Shown here in pieces: positions 2,785-3,410 of a DNA stretch of 4,613 bases. This stretch comes from a virus (Duplodnaviria > Heunggongvirae > Uroviricota > Caudoviricetes), in IMG/VR virus record IMGVR_UViG_3300007747_000079, one strand, 5' to 3'. Below the pieces are notes generated by a model that was not told the origin of the DNA, ran no database searches, and worked only from the letters and a program-made list of their open reading frames with translations. The translations under genes were made by a program, and so were the position numbers. Every line of letters starts with the position of its first letter. Positions within the stretch are counted from its first letter, which is position 1.

Positions 2785-2809
2785 CCCCGCACGCAATGCG
2801 GGGTTTTTT
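2785..2809 (+). terminator. rho-independent terminator after alpA
   Basis: A perfect 7-bp stem CCCCGCA (2785-2791) pairs with TGCGGGG (2797-2803) around a 5-nt loop, followed by TTTTTT (2804-2809). It lies 15 bp after the alpA stop and 19 bp before the next ATG. Confidence 0.75.
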
Positions 2810-2828
2810 GTATGTGAGGTAAAAAACG

Positions 2829-3410
2829 ATGAATAAAAATATTGCCGTGACGGGCAAGGGGTACGCTCGTTCAGTAAAAAAATTCTGCGATATTCGTGAT
2901 CTTGTCGTTCTGCGCTTTGATGGCGTGGATGTTCGTGTGGTGTATCTGAACGGCGATCCGTGGTTTGTTGCAAAGGATGTTTGTGAAGCTCTGGAAATAA
3001 GCAACTCACGCGATGCTCTAAAAGCTCTGGATGTGGATGAGAAGAATACCGTCGCTTTAAGCTACGGTATTCGCGGAAATCCAAATCATAGCGTCGTTTC
3101 TGAATCTGGTTTTTACAAGCTGATCGCCAGAAGTCGCAAAGCTGTTACTCCTGGCACGTTCGCCCATCGTTTCAGTAACTGGGTATTCAGGAATGTGATA
3201 CCAGGTATCAGAAAAACGGGGGCTTATGGTATCCCGTGGGGTGCATTACAGGATTTTTCCCGCCGTAAAGAGCAATATCAAATAAGTGCCAGCGAGAAGG
3301 GGAGGGAGCTACAGGCATGTAAGCGCAAAAAGCGTGAGCTGGAGGAAGAAGAAAAAAGGCTGATACGTGAATATCAGCCTGAGTTTTACTTTGGTAACCG
3401 CATTCAGTGA
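2829..3410 (+). CDS. Bro-N domain protein (antirepressor-like), with a short charged coiled-coil C-terminus
   Basis: The 193-aa ORF matches the Bro-N pattern closely: GDPWFVAKDVCEALEISNSRDALKALDVDEKNT…SESGFYKLIARSRKAVTPGTFAHRFSNWVFRNVIPGIRKTGAY. The C-terminus KRKKRELEEEEKRLIREYQ is charged and helical. A GAGG-containing RBS precedes the ATG. Confidence 0.85.
   Translation: MNKNIAVTGKGYARSVKKFCDIRDLVVLRFDGVDVRVVYLNGDPWFVAKDVCEALEISNSRDALKALDVDEKNTVALSYGIRGNPNHSVVSESGFYKLIARSRKAVTPGTFAHRFSNWVFRNVIPGIRKTGAYGIPWGALQDFSRRKEQYQISASEKGRELQACKRKKRELEEEEKRLIREYQPEFYFGNRIQ

Follow-up and report, generated by a model that had tools for sequence, protein, structure and literature searches.

The window, a 4,613-nt stretch of DNA from a virus of the Caudoviricetes (IMG/VR record IMGVR_UViG_3300007747_000079), was composed of two parts, the terminase region of a helper prophage and the left end of a satellite inserted in it. 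Judged by its genes and its position, the satellite is a helper-embedded phage-inducible chromosomal island (HE-PICI) in the large-terminase gene of a lambdoid prophage. It carried, from left to right, an integrase gene (int), a small alpA-like gene, a gene for a protein with a Bro-N domain (Bro-N), a convergent ribbon-helix-helix gene and the first gene of a rightward operon (Table 1). The alpA-like gene and Bro-N were separated by a 58-nt spacer, which contained a hairpin directly followed by a run of T residues.

The hairpin between the alpA-like gene and Bro-N

The stem of the hairpin started 14 nt past the stop codon of the alpA-like gene. Its arms, ACCCCGCA and TGCGGGGT, formed seven perfect pairs (CCCCGCA/TGCGGGG) and a closing A–T pair, with six G–C pairs in all, and the sequence TTTTTT was read directly 3' of the stem. 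In a consensus scan, this hairpin was the top-ranked terminator-like site of the + strand of the window (eight pairs, six G–C). The folding energy was -12.7 kcal/mol for the hairpin alone and -19.2 kcal/mol for its 71-nt context, with z = -3.1 against shuffles. When 3000 first-order Markov windows were simulated and searched for seven perfect pairs with at least five G–C, a loop of 3–8 nt and then at least five T, the chance expectation was 0.0013 such sites per window with both strands pooled; the real window contained one, located in the gap between alpA and Bro-N. The structure was one-directional, and its reverse complement had no T-run 3' of the stem. By sequence, the hairpin and T-run have the form of an intrinsic (Rho-independent) terminator. 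The strong intrinsic terminator that the initial annotation had placed before Bro-N was confirmed as a sequence feature by the scan, the folding energy and the simulation. We infer that it terminates transcription and, as a true intrinsic terminator, closes the int-alpA module.

The gap between the T-run and the start codon of Bro-N, previously given as 19 bp, was exactly 19 nt (2810–2828). The claim that it leaves no room for a promoter held up, and no promoter-like sequence was detected in it. A sigma-70-like site was absent between the T-run and the ATG both in the consensus scan at threshold and in a relaxed scan at 8/12, and no + strand site of at least 9/12 was found anywhere in positions 1–3700 of the window. 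The scans covered the sigma-70 consensus. The relaxed scan returned weak candidates only, none of which placed a -10 element 3' of the stem, and the best of these were located inside the 3' end of int (TGATAAAAT, ending at 2412, and TATAAT at 2423–2428). A promoter in the gap or inside the alpA-like gene was rejected, as nothing convincing appeared in the scans, and one inside the alpA-like gene would sit 5' of the terminator. Therefore, with no promoter in the 19-nt gap, expression of Bro-N must pass through the terminator. Of the sources named in the initial annotation, read-through and antitermination stand, whereas a promoter inside alpA does not; its transcripts would still have to read through the terminator, which follows alpA, and the block from the hairpin to Bro-N was linked to four different upstream genes. 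This leaves three routes to Bro-N expression: read-through, antitermination and an unconventional promoter that overlaps the leader.

Embedding of the satellite and conservation of the terminator block

The window was 99.5% identical over its full length to a locus of E. coli strain 20 (NZ_CP064847; L001), in which the large terminase was split by an insert of ~11 kb. The insert contained int, the alpA-like gene, Bro-N, the leftward ribbon-helix-helix gene, HNH/Icd-like, DUF4222, primase and single-strand-binding protein (SSB) genes, a ClpP-protease/capsid fusion and a DUF1441 gene, and it was co-oriented with the late genes of the prophage except for the ribbon-helix-helix gene and one other short open reading frame (ORF). 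The terminase fragment is labelled 'incomplete, missing C-terminus' in RefSeq, and the C-terminal part resumed ~11 kb downstream (L001 26972–28093). The helper DUF1441 gene before it scored under the gathering cut-off of PF07278 because it is cut by the window edge; the complete gene is annotated in L001 at 14731–15225. The consensus scan detected no + strand terminator-like site between the terminase fragment and int. When the same satellite was compared in diverged terminase genes, the match to the window began at 1113 or 1127, and the same terminase-split arrangement was present in O157:H7. With its large terminase gene split, the helper has to await excision of the satellite before it can package DNA, a principle already published for HE-PICIs. 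The satellite has late genes of its own, a DUF1441 small-terminase-like gene and a protease-capsid fusion (L001 23663–26319).

Insertion in a late gene and co-orientation with it, together with int-alpA followed by Bro, Replication and Late zones, characterize the HE-PICIs, and all of these were found here, with the alpA-like protein scoring under the Pfam cut-offs. The domain architecture of the integrase and the insertion site also fit the published HE-PICIs and PICIs. The proposal that the element is a satellite was borne out by this anatomy and by the terminase embedding. HE-PICIs were described by Tommasini, Mageeney and Williams (2023, NAR Genom Bioinform, PMC10111431), with Integration, Bro, Replication and Late zones and 14 late-gene insertion sites, terminase ('A_Terminase') among them; the published coordinates cover 491 HE-PICIs and 2701 fis/hpt PICIs. 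The element of the window resembled these islands in its length of ~11 kb, late-gene site, co-orientation, zone order and HNH_3-AP2 protein, and an HNH_3-AP2 Bro-network protein was reported in a terminase-site HE-PICI (PMC10111431). Excision was demonstrated experimentally for 11capE only (PMC10111431). However, a terminator between the Integration and Bro zones is not mentioned in that paper, where the two uses of the word 'terminator' concern fis and P4, and no later paper on HE-PICI regulation was found in the literature searched. The satellite type is thus already published, and the terminator between alpA and Bro-N is a previously undiscussed feature of several HE-PICI classes.

The alpA-like protein matched PHROG 66, 'excisionase and transcriptional regulator', with E = 9e-7, and Xis-type proteins weakly. 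Its match to HTH_17 (E = 0.004, 17.7 bits) was under the cut-off of 27, and no match to PF05930 (Phage_AlpA) was found for it in the Pfam scan. A homologue with 70% identity, tested for PF05930 membership, reached 19.6 bits against a cut-off of 21 (L005), whereas the positional counterparts in other HE-PICI classes were clear Phage_AlpA members (E = 7.5e-14 to 1.7e-9). The designation alpA is positional only, the protein being under the Pfam cut-offs.

The conservation of the block was followed in 85 loci from RefSeq and IMG/VR. The hairpin, the T-run, the ribosome site and Bro-N recurred together in ~80 related loci from four HE-PICI classes, which had different integrases and AlpA genes. Every locus with a Bro-N identity of at least 83% (83–100%) kept the stem, except one with a single mismatch (L083). 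The satellite was co-oriented with the truncated upstream late gene in all 57 loci in which that gene was recognisable (57/57). Between classes, similarity to the window started at the left arm of the hairpin. Some E. coli matches to a query of alpA plus terminator covered its last 45 nt only, corresponding to the hairpin and the leader, and these loci proved to be satellites that have another integrase and sit in a P27-type terminase gene; a DNA-level search of E. coli for other integrase classes retrieved the same class only. The order in the P27 class was AlpA1, terminator, AlpA2, terminator and Bro-N, and further classes lay inside the portal gene and downstream of head-tail genes. In two P27-class loci (L002 and L063, 3428–4049), the tandem Phage_AlpA genes each had their own intrinsic terminator followed 15–19 nt later by a ribosome site, so that two terminators stood in series.

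Stems were tabulated for each variant; MAFFT set the left arms out of register owing to the unequal loop lengths. Across loci, the loops ranged from 3 to 8 nt, the T-runs from 5 to 6 nt and the distance to the ATG from 19 to 20 nt, and the stems were kept. Two stem families were distinguished, CCCCGC(A)/(T)GCGGGG and, in the portal class, CCCCTC/GAGGGG, with a compensatory double change from G–C to U–A. The O157-type stem had an A-to-G change, giving a G–U pair in place of A–U. The GAGG of the ribosome site was invariant among leaders of the window type, and the portal-class leader had AAGG or GGGT. The conservation of the stem together with the compensatory change argues, to a limited extent, for selection on the structure.

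In the minimum-energy fold, UAUCUU (2774–2779) was paired with GAGGUA at the ribosome site (2816–2821). A different upstream sequence, UUACC, made the same pairing in the P27 class, and nothing similar was present in L005 or the portal classes. The pairing could be an anti-ribosome-site helix in read-through transcripts; as it was seen in the window and the P27 class only, an extended fold hiding the ribosome site was rejected as probably due to chance. The G+C content was 31–46% over int and alpA (1316–2800) and 43–50% from Bro-N on (2800–4613), a step that fits a mosaic joint near the terminator.

Full-length homologues of Bro-N with 50–65% identity were found in Providencia, Morganella, Serratia, Erwinia, Klebsiella, Yersinia and Proteus. 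Of the islands concerned, at least six lie next to tRNA genes and are chromosomal, not embedded. In these homologues, Bro-N started 10–15 nt past the preceding gene without a hairpin, and no + strand terminator was present between the small AlpA/HTH_17 gene and Bro-N. The model PICI of Gram-negative bacteria, EcCICFT073, shared with the element of the window int, alpA, a Bro-like ORF3, a leftward YlcI/YnfO gene and Icd-like, DUF4222, primase, SSB and capsid genes. It differs in being chromosomal, in having a 365-nt spacer with a promoter-like site before alpA, compared with an int-alpA gap of 0–12 nt in the HE-PICI classes, and in its hairpin after alpA (GGCGGC-ACACA-GCCGCC), which is of G+C and has no T-run. 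The founding HE-PICI, 11capE, has no Bro-N, and its alpA is followed by an AT-rich 14-bp hairpin, which has no canonical T-run and is shared with a convergent gene. The sampled embedded elements were without a separate alpA promoter region and with a canonical terminator after alpA, 11capE being a partial exception.

The ORF3 after alpA in EcCICFT073 is unannotated (L147 8767–9040) and was found to be a truncated Bro-N-like sequence, GVNLTYTPDGNQNMSIISESGFYKLI, with the motif SESGFYKLI. A reporter of ORF3 depended on AlpA (Fillol-Salom et al. 2018, PMC6092414). As ORF3 is Bro-N-like, the AlpA-dependent gene of that study would therefore be a Bro-zone remnant.

A proposed link between helper antitermination and the expression of Bro-N

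The helper prophage in L001 encodes a Q antiterminator (PF03589, E = 2e-50), and two intrinsic terminators were located within about 100 nt past Q (L001 10913–10929 and 10960–10979). By analogy, Q and the two terminators have the classical late-promoter layout. The sole opposite-strand gene between Q and the satellite sat well before the terminase genes, and scans of L001 and the window gave no strong + strand terminator from the Q-region terminators to the alpA terminator. When compared with the late control of lambda (Q, P_R', tR'), the likeness extended to the helper's Q, the promoter region, the two terminators and the long co-oriented late operon, and the alpA terminator had the same form as those of the Q region, a 6–7 bp G+C stem with a T-run. 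However, the gated gene here would belong to the parasite inside the late operon and not to the phage. In lambda-type control, only Q-modified polymerases leave the late promoter region, and they then ignore intrinsic terminators for tens of kb. It follows from this known biology that the alpA terminator could not stop read-in by Q-modified polymerase from the helper late promoter, whereas it should stop unmodified polymerases. A satellite copy of the helper late promoter, on which Q could act in trans, was sought by short-word BLAST and none was found; therefore, gating would be possible only in cis, before excision.

This arrangement suggests a reading in which the terminator insulates Bro-N from basal int/alpA transcription and Bro-N depends on read-in by the Q-modified polymerase of the helper. 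We propose it tentatively, as a nearly even call. Ordinary polymerases from weak promoters in or before int and alpA would stop at the terminator, leaving Bro-N silent or barely expressed in a quiescent lysogen and also after the arrival of a new satellite, which needs the integrase and not the lytic programme. On induction of the helper, the late promoter would fire and only Q-modified polymerases would pass the helper's own terminators. These polymerases would then cross the terminase fragment, int, alpA and the alpA terminator into Bro-N and beyond, and synthesis of Bro-N would be licensed in cis by the late-phase antitermination of the helper. Bro-N transcripts have no canonical terminator of their own on the + strand (the hairpin at 3420–3439 is followed by AATGGA), and therefore the same polymerases would next traverse the ribbon-helix-helix gene in antisense and then enter the rightward operon.

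In a stronger form of this proposal, the terminator would act as a polymerase filter, by which the satellite senses the late commitment of the helper in cis through a terminator-resistant polymerase and not through a diffusible protein, with Bro-N and the antisense transcription across the repressor gene on only then. This form is possible, with the balance tilted against it. For helper detection by Gram-negative PICIs, the founding paper gave the inducer of alpA as still 'under study' (PMC6092414). Helper late transcription running on into the satellite is a hypothesis already put forward for HE-PICIs (PMC10111431); cis drive of this kind was proposed there with no sequence feature tied to it, and Q-type antitermination as the filter is a link that we draw here beyond that paper. 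If true, the polymerase filter would be a way of sensing the helper for which no satellite precedent is described, and if it is a Q-gated checkpoint, satellites would read the state of the helper's polymerase itself. If the hairpin is a leaky attenuator or a module linker only, it would be ordinary operon punctuation in a known element. The arrangement of terminator and Bro-N fits, but does not prove, cis dependence on helper antitermination.

Several points weigh against dependence on the helper's Q. We infer both the efficiency of termination and its Q-dependent bypass. The contrast between embedded and chromosomal islands is confounded by descent, as Bro-N identity was 83–100% among the loci with the terminator, and the hairpin may reflect one or two origins and recent module exchange instead of repeated selection. 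The compensatory pair was a single one among closely related loci, and 11capE indicates that a canonical terminator is not universal among HE-PICIs. An excised satellite is no longer fed by the helper late promoter, and Q-driven Bro-N would be a pulse or would come from unexcised copies. Furthermore, a Q-modified polymerase reads through everything, so the terminator would separate sources of polymerase, not genes. Many helpers of such satellites also look degraded (PMC10111431).

The main rival is a leaky internal attenuator. The genes int, alpA and Bro-N would form one operon read from satellite promoters, either P_int or an AlpA-activated promoter in the 3' end of int, and the hairpin would fix a low ratio of Bro-N to AlpA with no dedicated antitermination. 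Intrinsic terminators are rarely 100% efficient, the tRNA-integrated relatives have Bro-N plainly in one operon with alpA, and the weak promoter-like sites with a good -10 element lie in the 3' end of int where this explanation needs them (TGATAAAAT; TATAAT at 2423–2428). The gene that follows alpA in EcCICFT073 requires AlpA and P_alpA (PMC6092414). However, the stem with its six T is that of a canonical, strong terminator, the HE-PICIs have lost the alpA promoter spacer that the chromosomal PICIs kept, and with a second terminator ahead of Bro-N the P27 class would be attenuated further. The presence of the terminator in the embedded elements but not in the sampled chromosomal relatives would also be left unexplained, and we regard the attenuator as somewhat unlikely. 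It is improbable that the hairpin is mainly a module boundary or a stabiliser of the 3' end of the int-alpA mRNA, conserved by recent ancestry or recombination, with Bro-N a poorly expressed or dispensable cargo of a 'dynamic' Bro zone. The start of between-class similarity exactly at the hairpin is as expected for such a boundary, and one locus (L135) joins a portal-class integrase with the other hairpin type. The Bro zone was described as dynamic and domain-swapping (PMC10111431), alternative cassettes were present inside the Bro-N domain, and Bro-N was frameshifted, disrupted by an insertion sequence (IS) or truncated in some genomes and missing from 11capE. Against this, the 193-aa protein was conserved at full length across several genera with 58–68 invariant columns, the stem was kept through a compensatory change while the loops drifted, and the ribosome site and its 19–20 nt spacing were conserved.

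An unrecognised promoter, activator-dependent or used by an alternative sigma factor, could overlap the hairpin and leader and start Bro-N transcripts downstream of the stem. The limitation of the scans to the sigma-70 consensus leaves space for it, and the portal-class leader has TATAAG just 5' of the ribosome site; yet the TATAAG is not conserved, being TATGTG in the window type, a start within the 19 nt would remove or abut the GAGG, the -35 region would land in the G+C stem, and the sequences upstream of the hairpin are unrelated between classes. Such a promoter is quite improbable. Least probable, and by our estimate very much so, is bypass of the terminator by another satellite or host factor, for example the AlpA-like protein as an antiterminator. 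Every HE-PICI AlpA gene was followed by a terminator, PICI AlpA activates downstream genes (PMC6092414), and AlpA of P. aeruginosa lets polymerase bypass intrinsic terminators ahead of its target genes (PMC7969949). The latter, however, is an eight-helix protein with a 21Q-like N-terminal ring ('nozzle') and a C-terminal helix-turn-helix, of a family that loads at a promoter-proximal pause (PMC9371919), whereas the protein of the window has 67 aa and is of the winged-helix/excisionase type. An antiterminator of the P. aeruginosa AlpA type was rejected for it on its size and on the lack of sequence similarity to AlpA chains in the PDB, and the shared name of P. aeruginosa AlpA and PICI AlpA is, by sequence, coincidental. 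A PDB search with AlpA of E. coli K-12 was uninformative.

The arrangement was also compared with the satellite phage P4, which has an AlpA-family gene (vis) followed by a Bro-network gene (eta), termination to overcome and a helper-activated late promoter (PMC10111431). However, eta of P4 is translationally coupled to vis, and termination there is controlled by the CI/seqA RNA interaction and relieved by translation. The window instead has a 58-nt spacer with a plain intrinsic terminator, and RNA immunity of the P4 type was rejected, because no C4 or isrK match to Rfam was detected in the window at E <= 1. No antitermination RNA, put-like elements included, was detected at this threshold either, which counts against bypass by another factor. 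The Rfam search gave two sub-threshold chance matches, Trp_leader, which merely aligns the terminator, and PK-repBA.

The Bro-N protein and the neighbouring genes

The coordinates of the features are collected in Table 1.

Table 1. Features of the window, with the match or observation on which each assignment rests.
Feature	Position	Strand	Evidence
Helper small-terminase-like gene, DUF1441, 3' end	58–225	+	PF07278, E = 4e-8, under gathering score
Helper large terminase, gpA ATPase domain, 5' fragment interrupted by satellite	225–1154	+	PF05876, E = 1e-66
attL (approximate), helper/satellite junction	1113–1160		Match starts in relatives; terminase frame end at 1154
Satellite tyrosine integrase	1316–2554	+	Pfam Arm-DNA-bind_3, Phage_int_M, Phage_integrase, E = 5e-23 to 1e-19
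alpA-like small winged-helix gene, excisionase/regulator type, 67 aa	2567–2770	+	12 nt past int; PHROG 66
Intrinsic terminator (predicted)	Stem 2784–2791 / 2797–2804, loop 2792–2796 (CGCAA), T-run 2804–2809	+	Sequence, scan, folding, simulation
Shine-Dalgarno GAGG	2816–2819	+	9 nt 5' of ATG; sequence reading
Bro-N gene, 193 aa, Bro-N domain and conserved C-terminal helical hairpin	2829–3410	+	PF02498; PHROG 2593
Hairpin GGCGACC...GGTCGCC, putative terminator for leftward ribbon-helix-helix gene	3420–3439	-	Seven pairs, tail TTTGTTTTGT; no + strand T-run
Arc/YlcI-YnfO-like ribbon-helix-helix gene, convergent with Bro-N	3534–3707	-	PHROG 228 'Arc-like repressor', E = 3e-7
Best sigma-70-like promoter of the window, TTGACA-17-TACTAT	3701–3729	+	10/12 match
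HNH_3–AP2–Icd-like fusion ORF, first gene of rightward operon	3905–4582	+	Pfam HNH_3, E = 1e-17

Residues 35–125 of the Bro-N protein matched PF02498 over profile positions 2–96 of 96 (E = 1.7e-18, 67.4 bits against a cut-off of 25.6), and the match to PHROG 2593 spanned the full length (E = 2e-83). The full length, including the C-terminal motif, was conserved across several genera of Enterobacterales, with the conserved C-terminal motifs G-x-Y-G-x-P, L-Q-x-C-K, E-E-x-x-L and Y-Q-P. An AlphaFold2 model built on a 34-sequence alignment had a mean pLDDT of 65; the pLDDT was 70–87 in the Bro-N domain (residues 25–122) and ~60–68 in the C-terminal helices (residues 137–156 and 161–182). When residues 25–122 were searched with Foldseek, the top matches were the N-terminal domain of baculovirus Orf22 (4ye7), with a probability of 1.00 and a target TM-score of 0.61, the DNA-binding domain of Mbp1, and Dachshund/Ski; the E-values were modest, with a best value of 1.4e-3. 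As modelled, the domain has the alpha+beta DNA-binding fold of the Bro-N/KilA-N/APSES type. The C-terminal helical hairpin (residues 137–182), modelled with moderate confidence, gave no structural match by Foldseek and is a candidate partner-binding or dimerisation element.

Searches of the PDB by sequence, with the single sequence and with an 18-sequence profile, gave no meaningful match to Bro-N and no solved or characterised homologue. The PF02498 match and the DNA-binding-type modelled fold place the protein with the Bro-N/KilA-N/APSES family, which is often annotated 'antirepressor'. However, no experimental basis for antirepressor activity was found in this branch, where the label comes from source names and PHROG labels only, and the C-terminal hairpin sets the protein apart. 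The role of antirepressor, helper-sensing or interference factor put forward in the initial annotation finds support in database names only. The protein may be an antirepressor of the neighbouring ribbon-helix-helix repressor or a direct DNA-binding regulator, and its candidate binding partners are that repressor, DNA and components of the helper. In the protein alignment of the loci, residues ~55–90 of Bro-N (window ~2990–3100) were occupied by at least three alternative cassettes, NTVALSYGIRGNPNH, GVNLTYTPGGNQNM and MTLALTEGHSGKRGGARSWN. These were shuffled among loci with near-identical flanks, indicating mosaicism within one domain.

The ribbon-helix-helix gene was found at the same position in all related islands. 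Its protein matched NCBIfam YlcI_YnfO_N (E = 0.001) and Pfam Arc (E = 0.006), both under the cut-off, and it is probably the repressor of the satellite. Two copies of the palindrome ATGGTAATTACCAT (3704–3721 and 3734–3751), 30 bp apart, bracket the promoter at 3701–3729 and look like an operator pair for this repressor, and the promoter is probably the repressor-controlled start of the rightward operon. The palindromes overlap the start codon of the leftward gene. A hairpin of ACGCCCCG and CGGGGCGT (3776–3795), followed by a T-run on the minus strand, lay between the rightward promoter and the first rightward gene. Leftward transcripts would end there without entering the repressor gene, and rightward transcripts would carry the structure as a 5'-leader hairpin.

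The first gene of the rightward operon encodes a fusion, of which residues 177–220 matched NCBIfam phage_ICD_like (E = 1e-18). The 99.5%-identical RefSeq record annotates this region as an HNH pseudogene and a separate Icd-like gene, whereas the ORF of the window is uninterrupted, and most related islands have a short Icd-like gene only at this position. The arrangement resembles an insertion of the homing-endonuclease type at the start of the rightward operon. Farther along the satellite in L001 (23040–23350), an AT-rich stretch of ~280 nt between the SSB and capsid genes has a + strand intrinsic terminator on each side, AGCCGGAGCAATCCGGCTTTTTT and GCCGGATTCTCTCCGGCTTTTTT. The boundary between the Replication and Late zones would thus also be closed by terminators, and the AT-rich stretch could hold an origin or a cos site.

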